The notes beneath the pieces were generated by a model. It was not told where the DNA came from, did no database searches, and worked only from the letters and a program-made list of their open reading frames with translations. A stretch of 64,000 bases of DNA from an uncultured Phycisphaera sp. (GTDB lineage: Bacteria; Planctomycetota; Phycisphaerae; UBA1845), in contig CAZYEX010000053.1 in NCBI GenBank assembly GCA_964646605.1, positions 14,929-78,928 on the forward strand, given 5' to 3'. This document shows, one piece after another, positions 6,930 to 25,300 of this stretch. Positions within the stretch are counted from its first letter, which is position 1; each line of letters starts with the position of its first letter. A program made the translations under genes and the position numbers.

Positions 6930-6969
6930 GTAACCGCTCGTCGACGTCGCCCTGAGACACGGACGCAGC

Positions 6970-9368: not shown

Positions 9369-9369
9369 G

Positions 9370-11172
9370 TTATTTCGTCTCCTTGCTAGCCGCTTCGAGT
9401 TCCGCGACGCGAGTCTTCATGGCCTTCATCATCATTTCCAGGACCGGTTTTTGTGGATCGGGCACTTGGCCTGAGGCCAGCATCTGCTCCATTTGCTGCA
9501 AGCTTGTCTGCAGCTTGGCGAGGTCCTTGGATTCCTTGATTTTGGAAAGTTGTTGCTTGATGGCGCCCTGGACTTCGGCGGGAACGCCGGCGAGGGCCGC
9601 GGTCAACTCAGGGTCCTCGCTTTCCTTGGAGGCGCTCGCCTTGGTGCGATAGATGGCTACGGTGCGGGTCTTGTGGTCGAAGTAGGTCTTGAGGATGCGC
9701 TTCACGTCGTCGGCGGTGACCTTGAGCATCCGCTCCGGCGATTCGTTCAGGTAGCTCCAGTCATACCAGAGGTCGTAGACGGCGAGTTGGAACATCAGGC
9801 CGGTGTTGTTTCGCAAACGCTGGATGGATTGGGCGAGGACCTGGTTCTTCACCTTTTCCAATTCGTAGGCGGTGATTTCGCCGTCACGAAGCTTGTCGAT
9901 CTCTTCGAGGATCATCTTCTCGACCGCTTCGGGTTCCTTGCCCTCTTTCACCGTGGCGTTGATTTCGAAGTAGCCGGCGTATTTGCGGGAGGCGTTGTTG
10001 GCGGAGGGCTGTCCGAGGACCGCCTCCTCCTGGGTGAACAGTCTCTTGTAGAGTCGGCCGGTTTTGCCGGAGAGAAGCTGGCCGGCGACATCGAGGGCGG
10101 CGTCGTCGCTATGGCCCATGGCCACGCCGTGGTAGCGGATGCTGAGCTGCGGGTTGGTCTCCGCCTCACCGAGAAAGCGTCGCTCGGCCAGGGGCTTGGG
10201 TTCTTCGGTGATGATCGGCGCGGGTGGGATGGTCCCTTTGGGAATCCGTCCGAAATAACGCTTGGCTTGCTCCACAACCTTGTCGGAGTCGAAGTCCCCG
10301 ACCAGAACCACTTTGGCGTTGTTGGGGGCGTAGTAGATCTTGTAGAAATCACGCACGTCCTGGGCGGTGATGGATTCGACCTCGGACGCCCAACCGAGGA
10401 CGGGCACGCCGTAGGGGTGGGATTGCCAAAAGAGGGCCTCGAAGGCCTCGTCGAGCCTTCCCGTGGGCGTGCTCTCGGTTCGCAGGCGGCGCTCCTCGCG
10501 GACGTTGTCGCGCTCCACGTAGAACTCGCGCATGATGCCGTTGGCCATTCGGTCGGACTCCAGCCAGAAGAAGAGCTCGATCTTGTTGGCGGGAATCTCG
10601 ACGAAGTAGATGGTGAAGTCCTCGGAGGTTCCGGCGTTCAGGCCGGCGCCCCCGTTGGTGGTGTAGAGATTGAACAACTCGTTGTTCTTGATGAACGGGC
10701 GGTGCTTCTCGACGAGTTCGTCGAAGCGTTTCTTCATGGCGATGTACTCGGGCGTCCACTGCGCGGGGTCGAGGACATCGCTGATCTTGCCGTGGCGTTT
10801 CATCTCCCGCATGCGGTTCATCTCGTCGTTCATCTGCACGCGGAGCTTTTCCTCGTCGTCGATGATCTTTTTCTCGCCCTCGAAGTCCGTGGTGCCGACG
10901 ATGGTCGAGCCTTTGAAGAGCATGTGCTCGAAGAGGTGGGCGATGCCGCTTTGCCCGCGGGGGTCGTTGACCGACCCCACGTCGTAGGCGACGCAGCAGG
11001 CGACGGTCGGGGCCTCATGACGCTCGACCAGCAACAGCTCCAACCCGTTGTCGAGTTTTTCGACTCTGGGCTGGACGCCCTTGGCGTAGGCCGGGCGGTC
11101 GTACCCCTGGAATGCCAGCCCGAGCGCGGTTGCCGCCAGAAAAACAAGTTTGTCCCGTCGATACCGTCCCAT
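9370..11172 (-). CDS. M16 (pitrilysin-family) zinc peptidase, catalytic subunit
   Basis: LDNGLELLL, GIAHLFEHMLFKG (HxxEH), LNAGTSEDFTIYF, ERDNVREERR; ATG11172 precedes the signal peptide. Confidence 0.93.
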   Translation of the reverse strand: MGRYRRDKLVFLAATALGLAFQGYDRPAYAKGVQPRVEKLDNGLELLLVERHEAPTVACCVAYDVGSVNDPRGQSGIAHLFEHMLFKGSTIVGTTDFEGEKKIIDDEEKLRVQMNDEMNRMREMKRHGKISDVLDPAQWTPEYIAMKKRFDELVEKHRPFIKNNELFNLYTTNGGAGLNAGTSEDFTIYFVEIPANKIELFFWLESDRMANGIMREFYVERDNVREERRLRTESTPTGRLDEAFEALFWQSHPYGVPVLGWASEVESITAQDVRDFYKIYYAPNNAKVVLVGDFDSDKVVEQAKRYFGRIPKGTIPPAPIITEEPKPLAERRFLGEAETNPQLSIRYHGVAMGHSDDAALDVAGQLLSGKTGRLYKRLFTQEEAVLGQPSANNASRKYAGYFEINATVKEGKEPEAVEKMILEEIDKLRDGEITAYELEKVKNQVLAQSIQRLRNNTGLMFQLAVYDLWYDWSYLNESPERMLKVTADDVKRILKTYFDHKTRTVAIYRTKASASKESEDPELTAALAGVPAEVQGAIKQQLSKIKESKDLAKLQTSLQQMEQMLASGQVPDPQKPVLEMMMKAMKTRVAELEAASKETK

Positions 11173-11313
11173 GCGTAGTCTCCTCGGCGTTGGTCTCTCT
11201 CGACCGTCGCGGTCGAAAAGGGGGATATTAAGGCACCCCCGCCCAGACGGCAAACGTGTGATTTTGTGTCCCTTTTCCGGTCGCCCGGTCGTCCAGGACC
11301 GACGGACAAACGG

Positions 11314-11341
11314 TTGACCCGTATCCTCCCCGGGTGACAAT
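11314..11341 (+). promoter_or_regulatory. Possible sigma70 promoter of the PhoD-family gene
   Basis: TTGACC-N16-GACAAT. Confidence 0.3.
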
Positions 11342-11400
11342 CTCCGGCCATCCGCTCGGATTCGGGCGGAACCGTCCGTTCTTTTTGGAAAGGCTCGTTT

Positions 11401-12990
11401 ATGTCCACGCTCGCAGGTCCGTTCCTGAAGTTCGTCCGTTGCTCAAATAACGAGTGGGTCGTCTCGGCGATCTTGGTCGCCGACAGTGACAAGCCCCCTG
11501 TCCTTTCGTGGTCCGTGGTTTCCTCTAACACCAAAAACACCCCGCCCAAACCCCGAGACATCTTTCGCAACGGACCGAACGCCGTCGTTTGGCGCTACCA
11601 ATGGTCGGTTCCCTTGCAGCCGCGGGAACAAACGGTCGAGTACACGATCGACAAGCAGGTGCGTCGCTTCGTCGTTCCCGCGGAGGGCAAGCGGCTGCGC
11701 CTGGGCTACGCCTCGTGCAACGGGTTCCATTCGCTCAACGACATGAAGAGCGTTGTGCCCAACGCCATGTGGGGAGTGCTGCCCGCCGGCCCCGTCCCCA
11801 TCCGCAAGGACAAAGCCGGGCCGATCTTCACTGTCCTACACCAGCACCTTGATGAACCCATTCACTTGCTCCTGATGGGCGGCGATCAAGTCTACGCGGA
11901 CTCGATCTGGCTCGCGGTGCCCGCGATTCGCGAGTGGGTGGAGGGCGATGACAAGTGGACTGCAAAGTTCACCCGGAAGATGGAAACCGAGGTCAAGCAG
12001 TTCTATTTCAACCTCTACGCTTCACGTTGGTCGAAGCCCGGTCCCGCCGACGCCTTTGCGTCGATCCCGACGCTCATGATGTGGGACGACCATGACATCT
12101 TCGACGGCTGGGGTTCGTACGATGACGACATCCAGCAATCCGACGTCTACCAAGGTATTTTCCGCGGTGCGCGAGAGTGTTTCGAGGTCTTTCAGCTTCA
12201 CCGGCGACCGGGCGACGCGGGCGGCGCGGACGAGGGACTCATCGAGGAACTTGGTCGCAACCCGCTACGACGGAACCTCACATCCTGCCACCGAATCAAC
12301 GATGTCGCGATCGTAGCACTGGATACCCGGTCGAACCGCGCGACGAATACGATCCTCCCGCAATCCACATGGAAGGCCGTTTTCGATTGGATGGATGCCG
12401 AGCAGGGTTGCAAGCACTTGTTCTTGATGGCCAGCATCCCTGTCGTGTATCCGAAGTATCCAGCGTTCATCGAGGGTTTCATGGGACTCTGGCCCGGACA
12501 AGCGACCGGACATCTCGATTCCCTCGAGGACGACCTTCGAGACCATTGGCGAAGCGGGCAGCACACCGGTGAGCGTCTGCGCTTGATTCACCGCCTGTTG
12601 AGGTTCGCCCGCGACAACCATTGCCGCGTTACCATCCTTTCCGGCGACGTGCATCTGGCGGCGCTGGGATTGTTGAGTTCAACGCGCGAGACCGCGAAGT
12701 TCCCCAATACCCAAACGATCACCCAACTGATCTCTTCGCCGATCGCCAATCTTCCGCAACCGCGAAGCGGGCAACTCGCCCTACAGGCGATCATCGGGAA
12801 CCCGGACGCCGTCGACCGCGGGATCACCGCCGCCATGGACAATTTTCCAGACACGGAAATAAAGGTTGTCGCCGCTCGGAACTGGCTCTGTCTGGACATC
12901 GAAAAGGATCGACGGATCTGGGCCAAGTGGTGGGTGGAAGATCGGCTGACGCCGCTATGGAAAGTCATCCACGCGCCCGGGCCATCTTGA
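11401..12990 (+). CDS. Alkaline phosphatase D (PhoD)-family metallophosphatase, no obvious signal peptide
   Basis: SCNG, GGDQVYAD, MMWDDHDIFDGWGS, LDTRS, LSGDVH motifs. Confidence 0.85.
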   Translation: MSTLAGPFLKFVRCSNNEWVVSAILVADSDKPPVLSWSVVSSNTKNTPPKPRDIFRNGPNAVVWRYQWSVPLQPREQTVEYTIDKQVRRFVVPAEGKRLRLGYASCNGFHSLNDMKSVVPNAMWGVLPAGPVPIRKDKAGPIFTVLHQHLDEPIHLLLMGGDQVYADSIWLAVPAIREWVEGDDKWTAKFTRKMETEVKQFYFNLYASRWSKPGPADAFASIPTLMMWDDHDIFDGWGSYDDDIQQSDVYQGIFRGARECFEVFQLHRRPGDAGGADEGLIEELGRNPLRRNLTSCHRINDVAIVALDTRSNRATNTILPQSTWKAVFDWMDAEQGCKHLFLMASIPVVYPKYPAFIEGFMGLWPGQATGHLDSLEDDLRDHWRSGQHTGERLRLIHRLLRFARDNHCRVTILSGDVHLAALGLLSSTRETAKFPNTQTITQLISSPIANLPQPRSGQLALQAIIGNPDAVDRGITAAMDNFPDTEIKVVAARNWLCLDIEKDRRIWAKWWVEDRLTPLWKVIHAPGPS

Positions 12991-13021
12991 GGACGCGCCG
13001 TCGTGCGAAGAACCGGGCGGG

Positions 13022-13165
13022 TCAACGCTTTCCCTTCGTTGGGCACCCTCCGTTCTCAACGCGGATGGTCGCGACGAGGAGAAGATCCACGAGCTTGAAG
13101 CCGCCGCCGGGTGCGGCCACGACAGGTGTGGCGTTGGGTCCTGCACAGGATCGCTTTTTTTCCAA
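13022..13165 (-). pseudogene. Degenerate remnant of a prepilin-type leader
   Basis: TTG13165 frame: LEKKRSCAGPNATPVVAAPGGGFKLVDLLLVATIRVENGGCPTKGKR*, resembling GFTLVELLVVxAII and then stopping. Confidence 0.35.
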
Positions 13166-13172
13166 CGGGCCG

Positions 13173-13501
13173 TCAGGGAAGTACAAATTGCAGGGCCTGG
13201 CGGAGTTCGGCGTTACGGTTGGGCGGATAGGCGTGGCCGACGCCGGGGTAGATTTTCAAGAGCACGGGGGGCGGACGGCTTCGAGCCTCCGTGCCGCGTC
13301 GCGGTTGTTTTCGGCCTCCTCGTCTTGGTCGCGGTTGAGGATGGCGAAGCGAGGGAGTTCGGTCGTGGGTCGCTCCGGAACGGCGGCCACGCGGTGATCG
13401 TAGAACCCCGCAATGGGGATGGCGGCGGCGAGAGTTCCGTAGGCGACAACGACAATGAAGACGAGCCGACACTTCATCCGCAACCACGAACGTTCTTTCA
13501 T
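13173..13501 (-). pseudogene. Internally deleted, frameshifted alpha/beta-hydrolase (esterase) remnant
   Basis: MKERSWLRMKCRLVFIVVVA + LAAAIPIAGFY...PRFAILNRDQD...RRLEA; frame change at the G6 run 13266-13271 into VLLKIYPGVGHAYP...ALQFVLP; no GxSxG. Confidence 0.55.
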
Positions 13502-13770
13502 GGATGGTTCTCCAGGAAACCGACGACCGTCAGGCGGGACCGCTCGTCTCTCTTTGCCCACGGATTTTGCGCGAGGAATTGAATCTCCGGTCCGTGACTC
13601 CCCGGCCACGCCCGCGCCTACTCTGAAGCCGCACTTCACGATTAGATCGCGCGGTCGATCTGTGTTTTTTTCGTGCGGGGGCGAATCGGATCTGTTAGGC
13701 TGTCGTCTTATCGGAAACGTCTGGGTGCGGGTCGAAGGCAGCTTCTCTAACCACGAAACTGAGGAAAGCC

Positions 13771-14847
13771 ATGACAAAGAAGCTAACGAGAGGCATGTTT
13801 CCGTGGACCCTGCTGGGGATTGCGGTGTGCTGGAACCGGGCGATTGTGCAAGCCGCGCCGTTCTGTGACCCCAACAAGGTCGCCAACCGAAGTCTGAACT
13901 GTGAGGTGCTTCCTCTTACGTCCGCGACGGGGGACGTCGCGCAGACGGCCCTGCGGGTGTTAATGATCGATTTGCAGAACCCCCAGCCTCCCAATGCGGT
14001 GTGCTGCCCGCCGCAGGACTTCAGCGCTTTCGAAGTGGGTACTTGCACGGCGGCGGGAGAATCGGCCGGGTGTGGTAGGTGGGTCGGTCCGCCACAGATG
14101 TTCTTGGAGAAGCAAGACAAACGTGCGAAGGGCGGCTATTTTGCCTCTCGTTTGCAGTGTACGCCCTATTACCACGACTGGACGCTGATCGGTGGGTTCA
14201 GTATTTTCGGGGCGGAGATCGTGCCCAGCTCGGCGTACGAACTTGTGGCCTACGCGTCATCCTGTAAGGGAGTGGAGCCGACCTGTACGGATGTTTCGAC
14301 CCCGGTCACGACGGTCACCCGCCGCTGGGGCGACGTCGCGGCGGCCTTTAACCCGCCCAGCATCACGACCCAGCCGGATGCGATCGATGTCACCGTGATG
14401 GGACAGAAGTTCACCAACCAGCCCGGTTCGCCCCCCAACGCCTTGACGAAAGTCCGAGGCACGGTCCCCGATCTCTTTCTTGACGTCGACGCGCTGGACG
14501 TCAACGACGTGAACGATGCGTTTAACGGCGTGGCCTTCCCCTATAGCGGCCCATGTGTGTGCCCGCCGACTGTCTCGTGCGGGGCGGTGACTTGTACCTC
14601 TCCGGTGCAATGTACGGCGTTCGGACCTGGGGCGACGTGCGTGAGGACCTGTGTCGGCGGACCAAACAGCGGGCTGCAATGCAAGGCGGACAAACATTGC
14701 AATCTTTGCCCGGGCGGCTCGCCGTTTGCGGGGTTGTTCTGCGACCCGACCGTGGCAGACGACTGCGGTGGCCCGGGATTCAACTGTCCGTCACAAGGCG
14801 CATGCGGTCCGGGGTCTTGTCGAGACCGCTGCGAGCGGTGCAATTGA
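13771..14847 (+). CDS. Secreted hypothetical protein with dockerin-like acidic repeats and Cys-rich C-terminus
   Basis: Signal peptide; RWGDVAAAFNPP...PDAIDV and DVDALDVNDVNDAFNG; dense Cys tail (CVGGPNSGLQC...). Confidence 0.7.
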   Translation: MTKKLTRGMFPWTLLGIAVCWNRAIVQAAPFCDPNKVANRSLNCEVLPLTSATGDVAQTALRVLMIDLQNPQPPNAVCCPPQDFSAFEVGTCTAAGESAGCGRWVGPPQMFLEKQDKRAKGGYFASRLQCTPYYHDWTLIGGFSIFGAEIVPSSAYELVAYASSCKGVEPTCTDVSTPVTTVTRRWGDVAAAFNPPSITTQPDAIDVTVMGQKFTNQPGSPPNALTKVRGTVPDLFLDVDALDVNDVNDAFNGVAFPYSGPCVCPPTVSCGAVTCTSPVQCTAFGPGATCVRTCVGGPNSGLQCKADKHCNLCPGGSPFAGLFCDPTVADDCGGPGFNCPSQGACGPGSCRDRCERCN

Positions 14848-14952
14848 CGCACTTCGCCACTTGCGGCTCCTGCCCGTGTAGGTTCTCATGCATCCTGGTT
14901 GGGCCTGGGTTTGTGGTACGGAAGGCCCTTGAAACGAGCGGTGTTGCGCTCC

Positions 14953-14979
14953 GCGTCACCCACGAGGGGTGACGCTACA
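14953..14979 (-). repeat. GTAG-type REP (family A)
   Basis: TGTAGCGTCACCCCTCGTGGGTGACGC; GTAG tetranucleotide plus hairpin; three more copies in the window. Confidence 0.8.
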
Positions 14980-14984
14980 TTCGA

Positions 14985-16082
14985 TTGGGTCACACGGCTT
15001 CTGGCGGAACCTCTGGGCAATACGGGGACGTAGCGGCGGTGATTCCAGAATTCGGCATCTCCAAACAAGGGACTCGCTTTTCCCTGTTTGTTTCGCTTTT
15101 CGCCGCCGCAGTGATCTTGTCCGGTTGTTCACAGTACATCGACCCGAACGTACCCGAGCCCTTGCACCCCATGACCGATCCCGAACTGGGGCGGGAATAC
15201 ATCCTTTATCGTCCGTCGAGTTACGACCGCGCTCACTCCTGGCCTCTGCTGGTGGTGTGCCACTCCGGTTTTCCCGACTCGCCCAACCGCCGGATTCGGG
15301 AATGGACGCAGCTTGCCGAGGAGTTCGGGATGATCGTGATCGCCCCGAAACTCACCTCGACCACGTCCTCGATGTCCCGCGCTTCGGCGAAGGATCCGCA
15401 GCGCCGCCGCGAGGATGAGCGTTGCATCCTTTCCGCCGTGCAGCACGCCCGGGCCGGTCACAACGTCTCCGAGGACCGCATTTTCCTCCACGGATTCGCG
15501 GGCGGGGCGGAGGCGGCGCTGTCCGCCGGGCTGAAGAACCCCGTCATTTTTCGTGCCATCAACGTGACACAACCGCGCTTTGACGCCGCCCGCGTCGCGG
15601 AGGCGGTCTCGCTCATGGACCCACACCAGCCGATCTACGTCAACTATCGCGCCGCCGACGTGATGACCGGGAAGATGGGGCGCGAATGCGCCGACTGGCT
15701 TCGTTCCCAGGGGGCCGATCTGCGGGCCGACTCCATCGGCGGACCGCAGGGCGGCGACGCCCGCCGCGCGATCGAGTTTTTCCAGGACGTCCTTCGCACC
15801 CGGCCGTGGATGCACGTCCGCGTGGCGCCAACGGAAAGCGGCAATCCGCTCGAAGTGCGTTTCCAACTGCGCAGCATCACTCCGCCGGCGCGGTTCCACT
15901 GGCGTTTCGGCGACGGCGACGAGTCGCCGGTGGCCGATCCCGTACACACTTTCGCCAAACCGGGCGCCTATCGCGTGGGCGTCACCGTCGAGTGGCCCAC
16001 GCTAGGCGAGCACACCCGCCTGGTCGATCTCGCCTTGCCGTCGGGGACGCTTCGCCCCGCCCGCGGGCCTGACCCCCGCTGA
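14985..16082 (+). CDS. Lipoprotein: PHB-depolymerase-type esterase fold plus PKD domain; nucleophile Ser replaced by Ala
   Basis: Lipobox LSGC; YILYRPSSY...WPLLVVCH; RIFLHGFAGGA; C-terminal FHWRFGDG...PVHTFAKPGAYRVGVTV (PKD); start may be GTG15039. Confidence 0.8.
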   Translation: MGHTASGGTSGQYGDVAAVIPEFGISKQGTRFSLFVSLFAAAVILSGCSQYIDPNVPEPLHPMTDPELGREYILYRPSSYDRAHSWPLLVVCHSGFPDSPNRRIREWTQLAEEFGMIVIAPKLTSTTSSMSRASAKDPQRRREDERCILSAVQHARAGHNVSEDRIFLHGFAGGAEAALSAGLKNPVIFRAINVTQPRFDAARVAEAVSLMDPHQPIYVNYRAADVMTGKMGRECADWLRSQGADLRADSIGGPQGGDARRAIEFFQDVLRTRPWMHVRVAPTESGNPLEVRFQLRSITPPARFHWRFGDGDESPVADPVHTFAKPGAYRVGVTVEWPTLGEHTRLVDLALPSGTLRPARGPDPR

Positions 16083-16209
16083 TCCGAACGCCCGCGGCCC
16101 CGCCGTGTGCCACAACATGGCATCCATCCAAGGCCGGACGAACCTTCAAACCATGGCGCCGAGACGCCTCGGGAGGTCCCATATCTCGGCAATGCCTCAA
16201 AAAAGACCG

Positions 16210-16238
16210 TTCCGAGAAGGGCCGGCGGACGGTATAAT
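16210..16238 (+). promoter_or_regulatory. Candidate sigma70 promoter of the fibre-like array
   Basis: TTCCGA-N17-TATAAT. Confidence 0.5.
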
Positions 16239-16394
16239 CCGGGTTCGTCGTGACGGAGGTTTGGGGGGAATGCGACTCCTGGAAATGACATCGGCCCTGG
16301 GTTCGGAAGGTCCCGCGCGCATCTCGAATCGGGAAAGGGACTCGATTCGAAGGGGGTGTCCACCGCTACGGGCCAAGACTCGAGGAATTGGGCG

Positions 16395-17516
16395 ATGACG
16401 AGGTTCTCATGGCGTTGGGATTGGGCGGCACCGGCGATTGTCATTTTGTCGAGCGCAGCTCGGGCCGGTACGCTCCCAAATACGACCTTCACCTACCAGG
16501 GTCAACTCAAGCAGAACGGCGTGCCGGCAAGCGGCGAATTCGATCTTCGGTTCCGGTTGATTCGCAGTCCCATCAACTCCATCGAACTGTGCGTAGACAA
16601 TGTACCCGTGGTCAACGGGCTGTTCAGCGCTTCTCTTGACTTCGGCACGTTGCTTTTCAACGGTTCGGAGCTCGATCTCGAGGTCGCGCTTCGACCCGGC
16701 GGTCCGCCCGCCGACTGTTTCCTCTTTCCGGGACCCGACTACACAACGCTGGTCCCGCGCCAGCCGGTGACTCCTGTCCCTTACGCGCTCCATGCGTCCA
16801 GCACCCCAGCGCCGTCCACCCTGGCGAACCCCGACAACGCGCGGGATACGGTGGTCACGGTGGATTCGGACGGCGAGGTCGGGATCGGCACGGAGATTCC
16901 ATTAACAAACTTGCACGTGGTCGATGGCACGGGGGTTTCGGGATCGATCCACCCCGACTCGATCGCGGCCTTTCAGCGCGACGGCAGCGCCTTCCTCTAT
17001 GTGGAAACCTCTGAATCCGGCGTCGGCGGGGTGGCGTTCGGCCACCCCGGCAAGTCGCAGGCGGCAGGAATCGTCTTCGGCGACGCAGCTACGTCCGAAG
17101 GGCTCCAGTTTCAGACCGGCGGGCTTGCGCGAATGGCGATTAGCTCCGCGGGTCGCGTCGGCATCGGCGTGACTGCTCCGACGGACAGGCTCCACCTCGG
17201 CGGAACGCCCGGAACCGACGGCATCCGATTCCCCGACGGTACGCAACAAACGACGGCCTACCGGCGGCTCAAGGCATCGGCGGTCTTCGACCCGCCGTCC
17301 GTCGCGGCCGGTGCCAGCACGACGGTCTCCATCGCGGTCGTGGGCGCGGCCGTTGGCGACGTGGCCATCTTCAATCCGCGCGTCGGCATGCCCGCGGGAC
17401 TGATCGTCGCCCAAACTCGCGTCAACACCGACGGCGTAGTCGTCACGCTGTACAACGCATCGGCAATCATCATTGACGCTCCGGGGAACACCGCGGATGT
17501 CGTCGTGCTGAAATAG
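16395..17516 (+). CDS. Secreted fibre-like protein 1 (FTYQG module, VGIG repeats, small beta-rich tip)
   Basis: Signal peptide, TFTYQGQLKQNG...NGLFSASLDFG...PRQPVTPVPYALHA, two VGIG(T/V)xxP repeats, tip FDPPSVAAG...VGAAVGD. Confidence 0.75.
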   Translation: MTRFSWRWDWAAPAIVILSSAARAGTLPNTTFTYQGQLKQNGVPASGEFDLRFRLIRSPINSIELCVDNVPVVNGLFSASLDFGTLLFNGSELDLEVALRPGGPPADCFLFPGPDYTTLVPRQPVTPVPYALHASSTPAPSTLANPDNARDTVVTVDSDGEVGIGTEIPLTNLHVVDGTGVSGSIHPDSIAAFQRDGSAFLYVETSESGVGGVAFGHPGKSQAAGIVFGDAATSEGLQFQTGGLARMAISSAGRVGIGVTAPTDRLHLGGTPGTDGIRFPDGTQQTTAYRRLKASAVFDPPSVAAGASTTVSIAVVGAAVGDVAIFNPRVGMPAGLIVAQTRVNTDGVVVTLYNASAIIIDAPGNTADVVVLK

Positions 17517-17553
17517 ATCACGCGGCAAGCGAAGCTGCGGAGGTTGCGTGATC
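17516..17553 (+). terminator. Hairpin after fibre gene 1 (weak terminator or processing site)
   Basis: GATCACGC...GCGTGATC inverted repeat, no U-tract. Confidence 0.3.
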
Positions 17554-17614
17554 GAATCGATCTGTTGAAATCAGTACGTGGAACCATGACCGAAAGGGAG
17601 GCAGGAGCAAGACC

Positions 17615-19285
17615 ATGAGAGGCAATCGAGTACAAGCCGCGACGGTTGTTCTGCTTTGGACGACGGGGATGGTCCTGGCCGCACCGCCGGGTACCGCGTT
17701 CACCTACCAAGGGCAACTCAAGCGAGACGGCGTGCCGCCGAGCGACACCGTACCGATGGGGTTTTCACTGTGGAACGCTGAGGCAAACGGGGCGAAAGTC
17801 GCGCCGGATATCAACGACGACAGCGTCGAAGTCGTGAACGGCCTGTTTGCCGTGCGGCTCGACTTCGGAGCATCCGCGTTCACCGGTGAGGGACGTTGGC
17901 TGGAGATCGCCGTCGACGGAACGCCGCTATCGCCCCGCCAACCGCTCACGCCGACGCCGTATGCGCTGCACGCGCTAAACGTCCCGGCGCCGTCAAACTG
18001 GTTGAACGACGGCGACCACGTGGTCCTGCCCACGGGCAACGTCGGCATCGGCACGAATCAACCCACGGCCATGCTTCACTTGCAGCGGCCCTACGCGTCC
18101 ACCGCGATGCGATTCCAAAGCCTACGGTTCGATCAGGGCGCGCCGGCGTCGTTGGTGCGAGCGCCCAATTCTGCGGCGAATTCGGGCATCGGTGCAACAT
18201 GGAGCAACCCCGGCAATGCCCTTTCGACCAACGACGCGTGGGCGACGACCGACCTTTCGGAAGTCGTCGGAACGCCGGATGCCGATCAGTCGGGCTTCTT
18301 GGACCTGTCCGCGGCCGCCTTTTCGATCCCTGCGGCCGGACAGGTCACCGGGATTACCGTACAGATCGAGGGCCATGCCGCCGCCGGTTGCTCCGACTGC
18401 GAAACGGCTGCGGTGGTCGTGTCGGCGGAACTACTGGGCGGGTCGGCGCCGTCCTCCACGCGGTCCGTGGAGTTCGGCCCGTCCGACGCCGTCTTCGCCA
18501 CGGGCGGGAGCGTCGATCCCTGGGGGCTCGACTGGACCCCCGCACAGGTCAACAGCGCCGGCTTCGGTGTGCGCCTCTCTGCAAATCTGGTCGTGGGAGA
18601 GCTGCTCTGCGTCTTTGGCAGTTGCGGCATTATTCCTTGCGACTGCACGGGCACGGGGACGAGCTTCGTTGATGCCGTCACGATTACGGTCTTCTACTTC
18701 GAAGCCCCGTCAACGAGCACGCCGGTGCATTGGAGCTTGGGCGTCTCGCAGGAAGACGCCAACTTCCGCATCGCGGCCACGCCCGATCTCAGCTCCCCCA
18801 TCTTTGTCGTGACTCCGCAGGGGAGCCTGGGGATCGGTACTACGGAATTTCTCAATGGGTTCTTCAAGCTGGCCGTCAACGGCCCCGCCGCCAAACCCAA
18901 CGGTGGGCAGTGGTCGGCCTTGTCCGATGCCCGCGTGAAACGCAACGTCGAACCGCTCCACGGCGCGCTGGAGCGAATGCTGTCGCTTCGCGGGGTCACC
19001 TTCGAGTTCACCGAGGAGGGATTGCGCACGGGTCTGGCCACCCCAGGCCGGAAGGTCGGCCTCATCGCCCAGGAGGTCGAAGCGGTCCTTCCCGACTGGG
19101 TCGATGAAACACCGTCCGGCTACAAGTTCGTGACCGAATATGGCACGACGGCGCTCCTCGTCGAGGCCCTGCGCGAACTTCGCGCGGAGAAAAACGGGGA
19201 AATCACCGAACTGAGACATCGCCTGGAGCGGCTTGAGGCGATGCTTGAACGAGTCAATTCGAAGGGAGAAGGAGAAAGACCATGA
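17615..19285 (+). CDS. Secreted fibre-like protein 2 with Peptidase_S74-type intramolecular chaperone
   Basis: Signal peptide, FTYQGQLK module, GNVGIGT, passenger WSNPGNAL...FSIPAAGQVTGITVQIEG...WGLDWTPAQVNSAGFGV, tail WSALSDARVKRN...LRGVTF...GLIAQEVEAVLPDWV...LLVEALREL. Confidence 0.85.
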   Translation: MRGNRVQAATVVLLWTTGMVLAAPPGTAFTYQGQLKRDGVPPSDTVPMGFSLWNAEANGAKVAPDINDDSVEVVNGLFAVRLDFGASAFTGEGRWLEIAVDGTPLSPRQPLTPTPYALHALNVPAPSNWLNDGDHVVLPTGNVGIGTNQPTAMLHLQRPYASTAMRFQSLRFDQGAPASLVRAPNSAANSGIGATWSNPGNALSTNDAWATTDLSEVVGTPDADQSGFLDLSAAAFSIPAAGQVTGITVQIEGHAAAGCSDCETAAVVVSAELLGGSAPSSTRSVEFGPSDAVFATGGSVDPWGLDWTPAQVNSAGFGVRLSANLVVGELLCVFGSCGIIPCDCTGTGTSFVDAVTITVFYFEAPSTSTPVHWSLGVSQEDANFRIAATPDLSSPIFVVTPQGSLGIGTTEFLNGFFKLAVNGPAAKPNGGQWSALSDARVKRNVEPLHGALERMLSLRGVTFEFTEEGLRTGLATPGRKVGLIAQEVEAVLPDWVDETPSGYKFVTEYGTTALLVEALRELRAEKNGEITELRHRLERLEAMLERVNSKGEGERP

Positions 19286-19539
19286 GAACAAAAGTATTTC
19301 GGGGGGCCATGGTCGCGGTGGGGTGCGCGTTGGTTTCGACGACCGTCGAGGCCGGTTCGCCGGTCGGCAGCGCTTTCACCTATCAGGGGCAGCTCAAGGA
19401 AAACGGCGCCCCGTCGAACGGGGACTTCGATTTCCGATTCACGCTCTCTTCGCCGGACGCCACCTTGAACATCGTGCCGTTCGACGGTTTCAGCGAGGAT
19501 CCCACAATCCGGATAGACCGGCTTTTTTTGGAGAAATGA
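19282..19539 (+). pseudogene. Truncated fibre-like paralogue 3 (signal peptide plus first half of the FTYQG module)
   Basis: SAFTYQGQLKENGAPSNGDFDFRFTL, then similarity is lost and the ORF stops at 85 aa; ATGA overlaps on both sides. Confidence 0.65.
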
Positions 19540-20762
19540 TGATGAACAGACCCTCGAGCGTCGTTTGGATTTGCATGGTTGCACTCCTGGTCGTGATTCA
19601 CTGGAACCCACAGTCGGCACACGGCGCCGGCGCTTGTTGCCTTGACAACGATGCATGCAGCGATACGTCGGGTTCAACCTGCATCATCGGCCTGGGCGGT
19701 GTCTTCGCAGGAGAAGGTACGAGCTGCTCAACGGAGGGTGTTTGTTACGGGGCATGCTGCGACTGTGAATTTGGATGTTACGACTATTCTGAATTGGGAT
19801 GTTACAGTGCGGGCTCTATCTTTGCACTGTTCGTCGGCCCCAGATCAAGCTGCGCGTCCGATCCTTGCACGGGCGCCTGCTGTCAGAGCGACGGCTCATG
19901 CACGGTGGGGCCGTTTTGCTCATGTTCCCCACTAGAGTTTCAAGGGCTTGGCTCCTCTTGCGCTACAGGCGTTTGCGGCTGGGCGTGTTGTCTGGCGAAC
20001 GGGTCGTGTGGACAGACGAATCCGTCCGTTTGTACGAACAACCACGGGGACTACCAGGGCGACGGCGTCTCGTGCGCCGGGCTTGACTGCACCGGGGCCT
20101 GCTGCGGCGCTGGGGCCGTCTGCACCAACACCAACGAAGTTGCGTGCGCGGGTGAGTTTCGCGGCTACGGAACGCGCTGCGACACGGAGGTATGCGGAGG
20201 AGCTTGTTGTTTCGCCAATGGAACCTGCGATCTGGACATCCAAAGCTCGTGTCGCTCTCGCGGGGGTGTCTCCCGGGCCAACTGGTCGGACTGCACGGTG
20301 TGTCCTCGACCTCTGACCGCCTTCACATACCACGGTCAACTTAAGAGCGGCGGTGTTCCCGTCAACGGACCGGTCGATTTCCAGTTTACACTCTGGGACG
20401 ACGAGGCGGATGGTCACCAAAGGGGGGCGTCGCTCCCCCGGGGCGACGTCGACGTCAGGAATGGGCTGTTCACACTCGAACTCGACTTCGGACCCGGGGC
20501 CTTCGACTGGACAACACAATGGCTCCAGATCGAGGTATGTCAGGGAACCTGGGCCCAACAGACCGACTTCACGACGCTAACTCCACGGCAACATCTAACG
20601 GCCGTGCCCTTTGCCTTGCAACTCGTCGGCGTCGCGCCGGATGAGTATGAAGCTCCGGATGCGCCCGGAACGGCCCACCCCGATCCGGAAATCGCGGAAC
20701 TCATGCATCGAGTTTCGAGAATGGAGGCACTCCTGGAGCGTTACGCCAAGGAACGGGAATGA
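19536..20762 (+). CDS. Secreted Cys-rich repeat protein carrying a C-terminal FTYHG module (paralogue 4)
   Basis: Signal peptide, six xACC..xxC repeats, AFTYHGQLK...NGLFTLELDFG...PRQHLTAVPFAL, then EIAELMHRVSRMEALLER; ATG19536 preferred over 19233. Confidence 0.75.
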   Translation: MMMNRPSSVVWICMVALLVVIHWNPQSAHGAGACCLDNDACSDTSGSTCIIGLGGVFAGEGTSCSTEGVCYGACCDCEFGCYDYSELGCYSAGSIFALFVGPRSSCASDPCTGACCQSDGSCTVGPFCSCSPLEFQGLGSSCATGVCGWACCLANGSCGQTNPSVCTNNHGDYQGDGVSCAGLDCTGACCGAGAVCTNTNEVACAGEFRGYGTRCDTEVCGGACCFANGTCDLDIQSSCRSRGGVSRANWSDCTVCPRPLTAFTYHGQLKSGGVPVNGPVDFQFTLWDDEADGHQRGASLPRGDVDVRNGLFTLELDFGPGAFDWTTQWLQIEVCQGTWAQQTDFTTLTPRQHLTAVPFALQLVGVAPDEYEAPDAPGTAHPDPEIAELMHRVSRMEALLERYAKERE

Positions 20763-20849
20763 GAGTTGATAAAGCACGGATCTTGGTTACGGGCCTCGGG
20801 CGCCAAACTGGCGCAACGTTGATGCCATCGGACCTTCCGCGGGTTGGGC

Positions 20850-20878
20850 TTCCCCGTTGCGGGCGAAACCGGTACAAT
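20850..20878 (+). promoter_or_regulatory. Candidate sigma70 promoter of fibre gene 5 and the protease
   Basis: TTCCCC-N17-TACAAT; same CGGTAYAATC context as 16230-16239. Confidence 0.45.
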
Positions 20879-20991
20879 CGCCGACCGGGGGCTCGCGGCC
20901 GAACGGGACCGGGCCCGGGGGGCGATCACGGCGGCGGGGGATCCACATGACGGTTCTTTCACATTGGGTGTTACGACGAAGGGGACGACGA

Positions 20992-22497
20992 ATGAGAACT
21001 GCGAGGACGTTGGGATTGGGCGGCGCGGCTGCCTTTCTCGTATGCGCGAGCGGCGCGTGGGCGGGGGTGACGATCGGAACGGCGATCACGTACCAGGGTC
21101 AGCTTAAGCTGGGCGGCGTTCCCGTCGACGGCTCGGCCGACCTCAAGTTCAGTCTCTGGCAGCACGTCTCGGACCCCGATCTGGCGGATCAAATCGGCTC
21201 GACGTTGACCAAGACCAACGTTCCCGTCGACAACGGGTTGTTTACCGTCGATCTGGACTACGGCGCCAACGCCTTCAACGGCTTCGACCGCTGGGTGCAA
21301 GTCGAGGTGCGCAGTCCGCACGATCCGTTGAACCTCGCTCCCTTCACCACGTTGGCTTCGCGTCAGCCGGTCAGCCCGGCCCCCTATGCCATCAAAGCCT
21401 TCTCCGCCGTCGGAGTGGATGGACATTCGCTGGACGCCGCCGACGGCGCGCCCCTCGACGCCGTGTCGGTCAACAACGACGGCAGCGTCAGCATCGACTT
21501 CCGACTGATCTTCAGTGCCGGAACCACGCCGCTGATCACCGCCGGTCACGACAACAACGCCGCCCGTCCCAAACGGATGTGGATTGCGCACGGAGAGTTG
21601 AACCCCGCGTGGGGCATCCAATACCGCGATCTAGCCTCCGACGGACTGAGCGCCGACGCTATCGAGTTCGTGGCCGGCGACACGACCGTACCGCGGTTCC
21701 GCTTTGACCTCCCCGGTCGCGCGCTGACCCTTCACGACTCCGTCGGTAACACGACCGTCAATCTTTTAGGACAGGCGGGCGGGGGCGGCGGCGGACTGGT
21801 TCTAGCCAACAGCAACGAGATCAGCACGATCGAGTTGGACGCCGACGAAACGGATTCCCCGGCGATTCGCCTTCGAAACGCGACCGGCACACAAGAACGT
21901 GTCTATCTGGCGGCTTCGGAGGGCGCCGAAGGGGCGGAAATGCACCTTCGCAACGCCGCCGGCGTTACCACCATTCAACTGGACGCGGATGTCGGGGGGA
22001 CCGGTGACGGGCGCGTGGTTACCAGCGAATTGCAGGTCACCGGCGGCAGCGACCTTTCCGAACAGTTCGAGATCAATGCCGGCGACCACGCAACACAACA
22101 ACCCAGCGACGACGCAGCCGCGGTAAAACCGGGAATGGTCGTGTCGATCGACCCGCACAATCCCGGTGAACTCATCGTCAGCAGCGCCGCCTACGACCGT
22201 ACCGTCGCGGGCATCGTCAGCGGCGCGGGCGGCGTCAAGCCCGGCATGTTGATGGGTCAGGCCGGAACACTCGCCGACGGGAAACACCCCGTAGCCTTGA
22301 CCGGGCGGGTGTATTGCTGGTGCGACGCCTCCAGCGGAGTCATCCGACCCGGCGATCTCCTAACCACCTCCGATCGTCCCGGGCACGCCATGAAAGTGAC
22401 CGACCCGTCGCGGGCTCACGGGGCGATCATCGGAAAGGCCATGACCGCGCTCGACGAGGGTCAAGGCCTGGTGCTGGTTCTCGTTTCGTTGCAGTAG
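20992..22497 (+). CDS. Secreted fibre-like protein 5 with a second type of C-terminal chaperone-like domain
   Basis: Signal peptide, ITYQGQLK module, low-complexity beta repeats, tail GGSDLSEQF...PGMVVSID...VAGIVSGAGG...PVALTGRVYCWCDA...PGDLLTTS...GHAMK...IIGKAM...LVLVLVSLQ. Confidence 0.8.
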   Translation: MRTARTLGLGGAAAFLVCASGAWAGVTIGTAITYQGQLKLGGVPVDGSADLKFSLWQHVSDPDLADQIGSTLTKTNVPVDNGLFTVDLDYGANAFNGFDRWVQVEVRSPHDPLNLAPFTTLASRQPVSPAPYAIKAFSAVGVDGHSLDAADGAPLDAVSVNNDGSVSIDFRLIFSAGTTPLITAGHDNNAARPKRMWIAHGELNPAWGIQYRDLASDGLSADAIEFVAGDTTVPRFRFDLPGRALTLHDSVGNTTVNLLGQAGGGGGGLVLANSNEISTIELDADETDSPAIRLRNATGTQERVYLAASEGAEGAEMHLRNAAGVTTIQLDADVGGTGDGRVVTSELQVTGGSDLSEQFEINAGDHATQQPSDDAAAVKPGMVVSIDPHNPGELIVSSAAYDRTVAGIVSGAGGVKPGMLMGQAGTLADGKHPVALTGRVYCWCDASSGVIRPGDLLTTSDRPGHAMKVTDPSRAHGAIIGKAMTALDEGQGLVLVLVSLQ

Positions 22498-22516
22498 GCT
22501 CGTTCGCAAGGAGATC

Positions 22517-23917
22517 ATGACCATGAAACCACGCACACAGAGGATCGTCGGATGGCTCGCCGCACTGAGTCTCGGCCCGGCGCTCAGCGCCGCTCCGCCG
22601 ATGCCGCCGCGGCATGTGCAGCCATACCCGTTGCACACCGGAATTCACGCCCTCTCCACGGATGCGGCGGCGACGGCCAATGTCTATCAGGACGTCGTTA
22701 CCTCGCCGGGCGCGATATGGATGCGCCTGCACTTCGCGGATCACAACCTCGGCCGCGAAAGCTACATCACCATCACCTCGTCGCTCGACGGAGATCACCA
22801 GCGGCTGGATACACGCTCCATGGCGCCATGGGGCAACGCCTCGGCGTTCTTCAAGGGCGACACCGTGGAAATCGAACTGCACGTCGCCCCGGGCGACTCC
22901 GGCGTATTCGTCGAACTCGACTGGATCGTGGTCGGCGATCCCGTCGCTGACGGCGGAGTAGCCACGATCTGTGACTCCGGCGACGAACGCGCTTTGTCCT
23001 CCGACAGTCGCGTCGGGCGTTTGTACTTCGGCGGCTGCACGGCCTGGCTGGTTTCCAACGGCGCCGTGCTCACGGCCGGTCATTGCGTCGATTTCGACCC
23101 CGACGAAACCAACAACGGTTGCGGACCCCTATTGCCCAACGGAATCCTCGACCTCAACGGAGTCGTCGAATTCAACATCCCCCTTTCCACCGCCGGCGGC
23201 AACACCAATCCCGCCGCAGTCGCCGACCAATACCCCATCAACGTCCCCAGCACGGTCTGGAACTTCGACGGATGCGGACAGGGACTGGGCAAGGATTACG
23301 CGGTTTTTTCCGTCAATGCCAACACCACGACCGGCCTGACCGCCCACGACGCCCAGGGGTTCTTCCGCATGACTCGCGAGGTCCCCGCCATCGACGCGAC
23401 CGTCCGCACCACCGGCTGCGGCTCCGACAGCGGCACCCGCAACTTCGTGCAGCAGACCGACACCGGCACCTACGAAGGCGAATCGACAAGCGGTGCCAAC
23501 TTATGGCACAGTTACCGCGTGGACACCACCGGCGGCACCTCCGGAAGCCCCATCATCTGGGAAGCCAACGGTTTGACCCTCGGCATCCACACCAACGCCG
23601 GATGCACCTCCACGGGCGGGGCCAACAGCGGAACGTCCTTCGAACACTCGCCCGTGGAAACCGCCCTGGAGAACTTCCCGGGCGCCAACACGGTCTACGT
23701 CGATCGCGGACATCCCCTGCCCGTCGCCGAGGCGGGCACGATCTTCCGCCCCTACAACACCCTCCCCGAAGGCATCGCTGCCGTCCTCGACGGCGGAATC
23801 CTTAGCGTGGTCGAGGGCAACTATCCGGCCTCCGAGGGAAACACTTTCCTCATCGGCGACGACGGACGGGCCATGTGGATCCGCGCTCCGGTGGGGACCG
23901 TTACCATTGGGGACTAA
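22517..23917 (+). CDS. Secreted trypsin-like (S1) serine protease with lysyl-endopeptidase-like prodomain
   Basis: Signal peptide, WMRLHF prodomain, LTAGHC (His), KDYA (Asp), DTTGGTSGSP (Ser). Confidence 0.88.
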   Translation: MTMKPRTQRIVGWLAALSLGPALSAAPPMPPRHVQPYPLHTGIHALSTDAAATANVYQDVVTSPGAIWMRLHFADHNLGRESYITITSSLDGDHQRLDTRSMAPWGNASAFFKGDTVEIELHVAPGDSGVFVELDWIVVGDPVADGGVATICDSGDERALSSDSRVGRLYFGGCTAWLVSNGAVLTAGHCVDFDPDETNNGCGPLLPNGILDLNGVVEFNIPLSTAGGNTNPAAVADQYPINVPSTVWNFDGCGQGLGKDYAVFSVNANTTTGLTAHDAQGFFRMTREVPAIDATVRTTGCGSDSGTRNFVQQTDTGTYEGESTSGANLWHSYRVDTTGGTSGSPIIWEANGLTLGIHTNAGCTSTGGANSGTSFEHSPVETALENFPGANTVYVDRGHPLPVAEAGTIFRPYNTLPEGIAAVLDGGILSVVEGNYPASEGNTFLIGDDGRAMWIRAPVGTVTIGD

Positions 23918-24025
23918 GACGCGCTCGAATGCAGTGCCATTAACATGGCACCTTCCCGGGCGAGACGGGAAAGATTCGGCGCAGAGTGGGTTGCCACACA
24001 CCCTTGGAGAGATGCGGCCCTACGT

Positions 24026-25300
24026 TTAGACGGTCTGTTTTTCTTGGGGCGAGACGAGCTTGAGAAGCAGCCGGGTGATGCGCCGCGGTTCGGCGGTGAG
24101 GACCTGGATGCCCACGTTGTCGTGCTCGCAGAACTCCCCGGCCTTGGGAATTTTCCCCAGCGTGCTGAAGACGAACCCGCCGATGGTTTCGTAGTCGCGG
24201 TTGTCGGGCAGACCCAGGTGCAGTTGGTCGTTCAGGTCGTCGATGCGCATGCGGGCGTCCACTTCGTAGGTGTGTTCGTCGATGCGCTTGAGTTCCGCGG
24301 GTTCCGCCGGCTCGTACTCGTCGCCGATCTCCCCCACCAATTCCTCGAGAATGTCCTCGATGGTGACCAGACCCGCGGTTCCTCCGTACTCGTCGAGGAC
24401 GACGGCCATGTGTACCTTCTCCCGTTGAAAATCTCGAAGAAGGTCGCCGACCAGTTTCGACTCGGGGATGAACACCGCTTTGCGCATGATATCGCGCGGA
24501 TCGAAGGGACCGCCTACCGCTCGTCCGAGGAGGTCCTTGGCGTAGAGGATGCCCAGGATCGTGTCGATGGTGCCGTCGTAGACGGGGATGCGCGAGTGGC
24601 CTTGGATGCGGATCAGTTCGAAAATGGACGACAACTCCACGTCGGCGGGCACGGCCACGATCTCGGTCCGCGGGGTCATGATCTCGACCACCCGCTGTTC
24701 GCCAAGTTCCATGACCGACTCGATCATCTCCTTTTCCTGCTCATCGACGGCCCCGTGCAACTCTCCCTCGCTGACCACGTCGAGGATTTCCTGCTCGAGT
24801 TCGTCGGCCAGCGTCTTGGGATCGCGGATCGGAGCACCGATCAGGCGTCGAACCAGGGGATCGAAGAGCTGCAGAAAAACGATGAGCGGGTAGCAGACCC
24901 ATCGCAGCACTTCGAGCAAGGGCAGAAAGCGGATGACCAGCCAATCGCTGGAATACTCGGCCCAGGCGTAGGGGATGGCCACGCCGAAGATCAGAAGAAA
25001 GGTCCAGGCGACCACGCACCCGGCGGCAATGCGACGAAAGTCGTCGGGAGTCTGACGGGTCTCAAAGTAGTACAACACCGTGACGAAGAGGACGAGCACG
25101 GCCGCGGAGCGCAGCGCCGCCGTCACCAGCAGATACTGCCCGCGGCAGGCGAGAAACCGGTCGAAGGCCGCGGCGCGCCCGCGACGCTCGAACCACTCCG
25201 CAAGCCGACCCTTGGCCGGGGAGCGAAGAGCAAGGTTGAGCGTCGAAAAGAGCGACAGCGACGCCAAACCGATCAACCCCAGCCACAGCACCCAGTTCAT
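24026..25300 (-). CDS. Hemolysin/CorC family protein (CNNM + 2 CBS + CorC_HlyC)
   Basis: TM region, IMTPRTEIVAV, GHSRIPVY, HMAVVLDEYGGTAGLVTIEDILEELVGEIGDEY, YETIGGFV. Confidence 0.93.
   Translation of the reverse strand: MNWVLWLGLIGLASLSLFSTLNLALRSPAKGRLAEWFERRGRAAAFDRFLACRGQYLLVTAALRSAAVLVLFVTVLYYFETRQTPDDFRRIAAGCVVAWTFLLIFGVAIPYAWAEYSSDWLVIRFLPLLEVLRWVCYPLIVFLQLFDPLVRRLIGAPIRDPKTLADELEQEILDVVSEGELHGAVDEQEKEMIESVMELGEQRVVEIMTPRTEIVAVPADVELSSIFELIRIQGHSRIPVYDGTIDTILGILYAKDLLGRAVGGPFDPRDIMRKAVFIPESKLVGDLLRDFQREKVHMAVVLDEYGGTAGLVTIEDILEELVGEIGDEYEPAEPAELKRIDEHTYEVDARMRIDDLNDQLHLGLPDNRDYETIGGFVFSTLGKIPKAGEFCEHDNVGIQVLTAEPRRITRLLLKLVSPQEKQTV

Follow-up and report, generated by a model that had tools for sequence, protein, structure and literature searches.

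Two short genes in the middle of a tandem array raise the question of whether they encode a new type of surface protein or are what is left of longer genes. The array lies in a stretch of 64,000 nucleotides (contig CAZYEX010000053.1; the whole stretch is referred to below as the window) of an uncultured Planctomycetota genome from freshwater sediment. On the + strand of the window, between positions 16356 and 22497, five co-oriented open reading frames (ORFs), numbered here copies 1 to 5, each contain a module of ~100 residues with the consensus FTYQGQLK...NGLF..LDFG...PRQ..TP.PYAL. The best explanation of the array is a tandem set of secreted, trimeric-fibre-like surface proteins, the plan of which comprises a signal peptide, the ~100-aa beta-sandwich module, a shaft, a variable tip and, in some copies only, a Peptidase_S74 (S74) chaperone. 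The initial annotation had described copies 3 and 4 as scars of module shuffling, the former truncated and the latter of inverted architecture, and had considered copy 4 a possible new “cargo plus anchor” protein. It is likely, at a probability of roughly 0.7, that copies 3 and 4 are deletion remnants of once full-length fibre genes, situated in a variable slot of the array, and that they reflect ordinary turnover rather than a new protein type.

A hidden Markov model (HMM) of the module, trained on 211 family modules, identified exactly five matches in a six-frame scan of the window. The module directly follows a signal-peptide-like N-terminus in copies 1, 2, 3 and 5, whereas in copy 4 it begins at residue 262, behind six cysteine-rich repeats. 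This order, which had been taken for an inverted architecture, is in fact the normal layout of a recurrent subfamily: one to six such repeats lie between the signal peptide and the module in about 25 of the top 120 homologues, P0002–P0023 among them, and copy 4 has the same N-terminal plan of a signal peptide, GACC six-Cys repeat(s) and an FTYQGQLK module. Copy 4 shows 36–41% identity to the homologues P0002–P0013 over 87–94% of its length, and no relative above 41% identity was found in a search of 5.8 billion proteins; likewise, a scan of genome contigs with copy 4 alone yielded no relative, and an alignment-based scan yielded no close relative of this genome. Past the module, the members of the Cys-type subfamily continue with GNVGIGT shaft units and a tip. 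The residues that follow the module number 103–434 in all other members with a recognised module end (24/24), compared with 48 in copy 4, and in an alignment of 24 sequences the Cys and module columns are invariant while copy 4 is empty across the shaft and tip columns. The module is internal in all Cys-type homologues, with at least 103 residues after it, and is therefore not a C-terminal module.

Two homologues reveal what copy 4 lacks. In P0015 and P0021, the Cys repeats and the module are followed by a shaft, an S74 domain (PF13884) and a coil of the form DAEIAEL..R..R.E.L. BLASTP alignments of copy 4 with these proteins consist of two blocks, one covering the Cys repeats and the module and the other covering the tail, and ~290–315 residues are absent between them. 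The absence of the shaft, the tip and the chaperone from copy 4, as described in the initial annotation, is thus borne out, and the family-type terminal coil has been kept. On the contrary, the proposed new class finds no other member: no second case of a coil directly after the module was detected among 22,941 module-bearing clusters (1.84 billion representative proteins searched for module plus tail), and orthologous loci in four relatives contain neither copy 3 nor copy 4. The short form is thus a single case and does not represent a class of proteins.

The coil of copy 4, EIAELMHRVSRMEALLER, is identical at 12 of 18 positions to the last coil of copy 2, EITELRHRLERLEAMLER, and stands behind a linker of 24 residues. 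This likeness is far above what generic coiled coils provide, since the next best 18-mer in the six frames of the window reaches 7/18 and the maximum over 80 related loci (2,242,608 six-frame positions) is 10/18; moreover, the top matches in those loci are mostly helices situated 3–7 residues before a stop codon on the fibre strand. The corresponding coils of P0015 and P0021 (DAEIAELKLRLERLEALV and DAEIAELRDRVARFERLV, respectively) are identical to that of copy 4 at 10/18 and 11/18 positions, and BLASTP of the copy 4 tail against these terminal coils gives E-values of 6e-6 for P0015 and 3e-5 for P0021. Judged from its sequence, the tail of copy 4 truly derives from the final helix of an S74-type chaperone and is family-specific rather than generic. 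At the DNA level, only 34 of 54 positions are shared with copy 2 and most synonymous sites differ; therefore, the likeness reflects old paralogy and not a recent copy of copy 2, and recent gene conversion from copy 2 was rejected as its source.

The coil may be copy 4's own or may have come from a copy-2-like paralogue, the differences among 12, 11 and 10 matches in 18 not being significant. The second option underlies a different account of the locus, in which copy 4 is a chimera that combines the 5′ three-quarters of a horizontally acquired Cys-repeat fibre gene with the very last 3′ stretch of a copy-2-like paralogue resident in the genome. A single illegitimate recombination would then replace most of two resident genes and leave copy 3 as the left stub. 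Copy 2 is the closest match to the coil anywhere, with a shared unusual ELxHR and LER ending, as opposed to 10–11/18 in Cys-type S74 fibres, and the 3′ end of copy 4 has the same Shine-Dalgarno (SD) and ATGAGA junction as the resident genes. The base composition also has a bearing on this point. The G+C content at third codon positions (GC3) of copy 4 is 0.66, the lowest value among the 36 genes of the window (mean 0.772, standard deviation [sd] 0.041). It falls short of the mean by 2.7 sd, which suggests either relaxed selection or a foreign gene that arrived relatively recently; copy 3, at 0.756, is typical of the window, and the pair would thus look foreign and resident, respectively. However, GC3 in the tail of copy 4 (0.61 over 49 codons) is as low as in the rest of the gene, the coil DNA has diverged from copy 2 to the extent given above, and P0015 and P0021 demonstrate that a Cys-type fibre can itself carry such a coil. 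A chimeric origin is consequently regarded as doubtful, and the in-frame deletion within a single Cys-type gene is preferred.

Comparison with relatives argues that the segment between copies 2 and 5 is a site of change. Copy 2 is a full-length fibre with full-length orthologues (56–76% identity) in five other assemblies, and it forms the conserved left flank of the slot. Four of the five loci are syntenic downstream (Table 1): in L082 and L089, the copy-2 orthologue leads by an ATGA overlap directly to the copy-5 orthologue, in L083 a short spacer intervenes, and in L090 an unrelated fibre gene occupies the interval. Copies 3 and 4 have no counterpart at the syntenic position in any of these four. 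At the DNA level, window positions 19212–21064 have no match in L082, and in L083 they match only at the start of the copy 3 module (19364–19447), a segment that resembles the module starts of several L083 fibre genes. The conserved syntenic core of the array consists of copy 2, copy 5 and the protease gene downstream of copy 5, and the space between copies 2 and 5 would be its variable slot.

The oddity of copies 3 and 4 is real, and mis-assembly, on which it might have foundered, is effectively excluded. A tandem array of paralogues in a metagenome assembly, with a homopolymer at the junction of copies 3 and 4, is a setting in which such genes might arise from the collapse or chimeric joining of paralogues or from a wrong count of the T-run. 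Yet an independent Logan contig of 13,697 bp agrees with window positions 10904–24600 at 100% identity, and exact contigs from a second sample (X2; 18282–20251 and 20228–20879) span both overlaps and the module, linker and coil of copy 4, without any alternative junction, indel or substitution; all junctions are therefore covered by identical contigs in two samples. The few listed “joints” have sides of only 22–30 nt with 90% likeness and originate from paralogues of other organisms. Furthermore, even over the 53 nt that are best conserved, the DNA identity among the five paralogues is only 60–81%, which makes assembly collapse implausible. An assembly or sequencing artefact is accordingly an extremely improbable explanation of the junctions.

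Copy 3 is a truncated stub, as first described, although the part of the module that it retains is nearer to a quarter than to a half. The sequence after its signal peptide, FTYQGQLKENGAPSNGDFDFRFTL, contains the partial module at 19372–19449 (HMM positions 2–27 of 100 in the six-frame scan), and the remaining three-quarters were not found in any frame in a six-frame scan of the whole window. The last 29 codons end in the mini-hairpin and the run of seven thymines discussed below; as several other such runs in the window lie between called genes or at the 3′ end of an RNA, these codons may be former non-coding DNA that is read through to the first stop. Several paralogues and orthologues rank about equally as the parent of copy 3 in semi-global alignments, and for this reason a descent of copy 3 from a displaced 5′ part of copy 5 was no longer considered. 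The copy 5 module is itself orthologous to the L082 module from its very start. Neither copy 3 nor copy 4 has a match in Pfam, NCBIfam or PHROG.

The arrangement of the starts indicates which position copy 3 occupies. The stop codon of copy 2 (TGA, 19283–19285) overlaps the start codon of copy 3 (ATG, 19282–19284) in a shared ATGA at 19282–19285, and the leader of copy 3, AGGAGAAAGACCATGAGA, is identical at 17 of 18 positions to the leader of copy 2 at 17603–17620. Because the same junction, with the SD-like motif in the tail of the upstream gene followed by ATGA, is kept between the copy-2 orthologue and the next gene in L082, L089 and L090, the start of copy 3 corresponds to the position of the next-gene start in these relatives. 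The stop codon of copy 3 (TGA, 19537–19539) in turn forms an ATGA at 19536–19539 with the foremost of three consecutive copy 4 ATGs (19536, 19539 and 19542); the database gene model of copy 4 (P0001, 407 aa) begins at the second ATG, in which case a TGATG overlap remains. The ATGA overlaps that had been reported to link copies 2, 3 and 4 are thus present in the sequence, and they may couple the translation of the three copies.

According to the preferred reading, the slot would hold what is left of two or more fibre genes that were once full-length. Copy 3 would represent the 5′ part of the gene next downstream of copy 2, with its leader, start overlap, signal peptide and ~26 module residues still in place, everything from mid-module up to the leader of copy 4 having been deleted. 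Copy 4 would be a Cys-type S74 fibre that underwent an in-frame loss of ~290–315 residues, namely the shaft, the tip and the catalytic core of the chaperone, and this deletion would have brought the final 2.5 heptads of the coil up to the module and a degenerate linker. The linker is possibly a degenerate first shaft unit (G..D....GT..P, compared with GIVV.D.GNVGIGTK.P): the BLASTP alignment of copy 4 with P0015 extends weakly through it, and MAFFT columns also show a faint likeness. The run of seven thymines (T7) next to the copy 3 stop, with its mini-hairpin, likely marks the vicinity of the deletion junction; it is one of only six A/T runs of at least 7 nt in the 64 kb, and several of the other five are located between called genes or at the 3′ end of an RNA. 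An RNA fold around the run was no better than those of shuffled sequences (z = 0.31), and a scan for promoters and terminators gave nothing above shuffles. The history of the slot may have been either the in-place erosion of a larger array or the insertion of an already damaged foreign gene, and copy 4 may have lost its function. Similar damage is seen in relatives, in the split gene of L083 and in the tail of P0002.

It is also conceivable that copy 4 is a functional, selected fibre without a tip, in which a Cys stalk and the module are displayed or anchored at the surface, the coil acts as a permanent trimeriser and copy 3 serves as an upstream ORF that delivers ribosomes. With the Ser-Lys site of S74 gone, the coil would no longer be cleaved, and a small adhesin, a competitor or an adaptor at the anchor site could be envisaged. 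In its favour, copy 4 is an open ORF with an in-frame fusion, its module has the top score of the array (128.7 bits), and none of the six Cys frameworks is lost. In an AlphaFold2 model (mean pLDDT 82.3), the Cys repeats are predicted to form small beta-hairpin/helix units (pLDDT 75–92) and the module an Ig-like beta-sandwich (pLDDT >90), and the terminal helix of 24 residues has I/L/V/M/L/Y at a/d positions. Moreover, an SD-like GGAG motif occurs 2–8 nt before the three ATGs, in addition to the stop/start overlap, and exact contigs from an RNA-Seq-labelled library lie inside copy 4 (19749–19944 and 20305–20497). Nevertheless, the coverage of that library is thin and patchy and crosses intergenic DNA, so that it is indistinguishable from DNA carry-over and does not show transcription. 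The repeats of copy 4 score 17.9–53.1 bits with an HMM of 175 homologue repeats (family median 45.5), and four of the six are at or below the 7th percentile of the family. Two nearly invariant stretches of the module are altered (FTYQG to FTYHG and NARW to TTQW), and the lowest GC3 of the window fits a recent arrival that is still unadapted to the genome. Taken together with the lack of a second example among the 22,941 clusters and the absence of the segment from all syntenic relatives, these features make a selected tipless fibre unlikely. Still more improbable is the specific form in which copy 4 is a minimal tipless stub, its coil fixed to the module by the lost S74 cleavage, that shows only a disulfide-rich stalk and occupies or regulates fibre docking sites, or acts as a small adhesin. 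As a sub-variant of this form, T7 slippage or phase variation could fuse or uncouple copies 3 and 4. In the frame of copy 3, the run (19522–19530) reads CT T_TTT_TTG, which resembles a slippery heptamer, and a −1 shift leads into the frame of copy 4, open from 19233; a predicted stimulatory structure was not found at the run.

Several points weigh against the interpretation of copies 3 and 4 as deletion remnants. Both ORFs are open and the deletion in copy 4 is in frame, its six Cys frameworks and its module are intact, the latter with the best score of the array, and the overlapping starts with their SD-like motifs have been preserved; the confident folds and the terminal helix in the AlphaFold2 model are what a selected short form would look like as well. 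The low repeat scores could be due to phylogenetic distance instead of decay. Neither a close orthologue nor an intact ancestor of copy 4 was found, the best homologue being only 41% identical. In addition, only five loci underlie the parsimony argument on the polarity of the change (insertion here or loss in the relatives), L086 as the closest of them is represented by a short contig with a different downstream context, and copy 3 is similarly close to several paralogues, so that its origin is ambiguous.

Table 1. Features of the array and of the loci compared with it. Positions refer to the window, except those of the protease genes in the relatives, which refer to the relatives' own sequences; the last column gives the score with the module HMM and the HMM positions matched.
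Feature	Position	Strand	Description	Module HMM
Copy 1				83.5 bits; 1–100
Copy 2	17615–19285	+	556 aa: signal peptide, module, shaft, tip, Peptidase_S74 chaperone, terminal coil	110.4 bits; 1–100
Copy 3 leader and ATGAGA start	19270–19287	+	Shine-Dalgarno-like; inside the last codons of copy 2	
Copy 3	19282–19539	+	85 codons: signal peptide, first ~26 module positions, then 29 codons without a match	31.9 bits; 2–28 only
T7 run	19523–19529	+	Preceded by the mini-hairpin CCGG-ATAGA-CCGG; adjoins copy 3 stop and copy 4 start	
Copy 4	19536–20762	+	408 aa: signal peptide, six Cys repeats, module, linker, terminal helix	128.7 bits, highest of the five copies; 1–100
Six Cys repeats of copy 4	19626–20315	+	~37 aa each, six cysteines (GACC..C..C..C..C); regular expression and HMM	
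Module of copy 4	20316–20621	+	FTYHGQLK...PRQHLTAVPFAL; residues 262–360	121.9–128.7 bits; 1–100
Linker of copy 4	20622–20687	+	24 residues; predicted disordered, pLDDT <50 at 359–380	
Terminal coil of copy 4	20688–20741	+	EIAELMHRVSRMEALLER; predicted 24-residue helix 383–406, pLDDT 70–86	
Third ATGA	20759–20762	+	Copy 4 stop overlaps the ATGAGA start of a 63-codon ORF, 20759–20950 (MRVDKARILV...)	
Copy 5	20992–22497	+	Full-length non-S74 fibre; conserved right flank of the slot	113.8 bits; 1–99
Protease	22517–23917		Secreted, trypsin-like; comes after copy 5	
L082 (GCA_005240095.1)	6214–7587 (protease)		Copy-2 orthologue, ATGA, copy-5 orthologue (75%), trypsin-like protease (69%)	
L083	13635–15032 (protease)		Order as in L082 with a 157-nt spacer; copy-5 orthologue (67–73%) split in two	
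L089 (GCA_040960765.1)	8469–9872 (protease)		Order as in L082: copy-2 orthologue, ATGA, copy-5 orthologue (60%), protease	
L090	9873–11339 (protease)		Unrelated 923-aa fibre between copy-2 and copy-5 (53%) orthologues; protease	
L086			Closest by copy 2 (76%); short contig, different downstream context	

The array resembles a known type of bacterial fibre. In Bdellovibrio bacteriovorus, the mosaic adhesive trimeric (MAT) fibres, which fall into S74 and non-S74 subfamilies, comprise a signal peptide, a conserved beta-rich N-domain, a long trimeric beta-helix and swappable S74 or non-S74 tips; the N-domain directly follows the signal peptide, has no homologue in the Protein Data Bank (PDB) and has been proposed to attach to the surface of the producing cell (Caulton et al., 2024; PMC10769870). 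When full-length relatives of copy 4 were combined into a profile, it matched the PDB entry 8OND (Bd2133) with an E-value of 1.7e-10 and, more weakly, 8OJN, 8OML, 8OL4 and 8ON4; the matches of this group are tips of Bdellovibrio fibres of the “cell wall surface anchor family.” Copy 4 itself had no match in the PDB at E ≤ 1 (phmmer), and a Foldseek search of its model against the PDB returned only generic Ig-like sandwiches (best E-value 4.4e-3). The array proteins share with MAT fibres a Sec signal peptide, a beta-rich N-terminal domain, a shaft, interchangeable tips (an autoproteolytic S74 chaperone with SDxxxK, or other folds) and the presence of many paralogues per genome, and the FTYQG module is comparable to the MAT N-domain in layout. 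By contrast, the array is found in another phylum with no known predatory lifestyle, its proteins have ~400–600 aa as opposed to ~1,000 aa, and its genes stand in tight tandem with 4-nt overlaps and a conserved secreted protease downstream. The subfamily of copy 4 further differs in that 1–6 Cys repeats separate the conserved domain from the signal peptide, and copy 4 lacks the shaft, the tip and the S74 domain, whereas its full-length relatives do possess the shaft.

The S74 chaperone of phage tailspikes and tail fibres (endosialidase type) is the second point of comparison. The domain of copy 2 (PF13884, E = 3.2e-14, aa 437–496) contains the motif SDARVK, and the C-terminus of copy 2 matches many PHROG tail-fibre C-termini as well as PDB 6F45, a long tail fibre distal subunit. 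As in the phage proteins, the domain ends in a helical coil, to which the tail of copy 4 is homologous. Unlike them, copy 4 is devoid of the S74 core and its Ser-Lys site, so that the coil would not be releasable and a chaperone function should not be assumed: PF13884 has no match in copies 3 and 4 at E ≤ 0.1, and SDxxxK is absent from copy 4. Apart from the S74 likeness, no phage genes are in view at the locus.

Gene remnants in tandem arrays, the products of ordinary pseudogenisation through deletion or unequal recombination, provide a further parallel to the inferred fate of copies 3 and 4. Both are shorter than all of their homologues, have lost defining domains and are absent from orthologous loci, and both adjoin intact paralogues, which supply repeats for recombination, with comparable damage in relatives. 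They differ from typical remnants in that they retain open frames, intact starts and overlapping stop and start codons, with residual expression or function being possible. The synteny across genomes documents the turnover of a MAT-like fibre array, in which a conserved core is accompanied by one slot of gain, swap and erosion. In addition, the array extends the MAT-type fibre architecture to the Planctomycetota, in which a subfamily with an N-terminal Cys-repeat extension can now be defined. Both short ORFs are probably remnants and should be annotated with caution. If copy 4 proves to be functional, on the other hand, the module and the coil can stand alone, which would help to find the target of the conserved N-terminal domain that the work on Bdellovibrio left open.

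The protease downstream of the array deserves mention in its own right. In all four syntenic relatives, it follows the copy-5 orthologue, with 67–69% identity to the gene of the window, and this conserved position suggests that it is functionally tied to the fibres, for example in their maturation or shedding. A further observation concerns L083, where the copy-5 orthologue (11820–13609) consists of ORFs of 246 and 351 aa, split by an internal duplication of ~200 nt; window positions 21517–21713 align twice there, a recombination scar in the same type of array. Likewise, P0002 (1206–2744 of L092), which is the closest homologue of copy 4 (41%), has a low-complexity and apparently frameshifted C-terminus; its tail is overlapped by an ORF on the minus strand, and a DDE transposase and an integrase fragment are encoded ~2 kb away.

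The building blocks of these proteins are widespread. The FTYQGQLK module occurs in 22,941 clusters (50% identity) at E ≤ 1e-3 and in 12,993 at E ≤ 1e-10, and an alignment-based scan of contigs detected it in at least 569 loci of Planctomycetota, Chloroflexota, Verrucomicrobiota, Acidobacteriota and others; no Pfam or NCBIfam model and no solved structure matched it. The GACC six-Cys repeat also lacks a Pfam model. In other planctomycete proteins that are secreted (P0039, P0048, P0069, P0072 and P0094), up to ~11 copies of it stand in long arrays, and some of these proteins have dockerin-like ends. The repeat is a common extracellular building block in the phylum and no special cargo.

Downstream of copy 4, the 63-codon ORF is devoid of fibre features, and the module HMM has no match in 20763–20991; together with the spacer of 229 nt that precedes copy 5, the ORF may be all that remains of another lost fibre gene. 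The start of copy 5 is best placed at 20992 (MRTART...), in agreement with an independent gene call. Finally, an exact repeat of 17 nt, CGTTGGGATTGGGCGGC, is present at 16413–16429 and 21008–21024, in the signal-peptide regions of copies 1 and 5, respectively. It is read in different frames in the two genes (RWDWAA and TLGLGG), which hints that the 5′ end of copy 1 has been frameshifted or remodelled.

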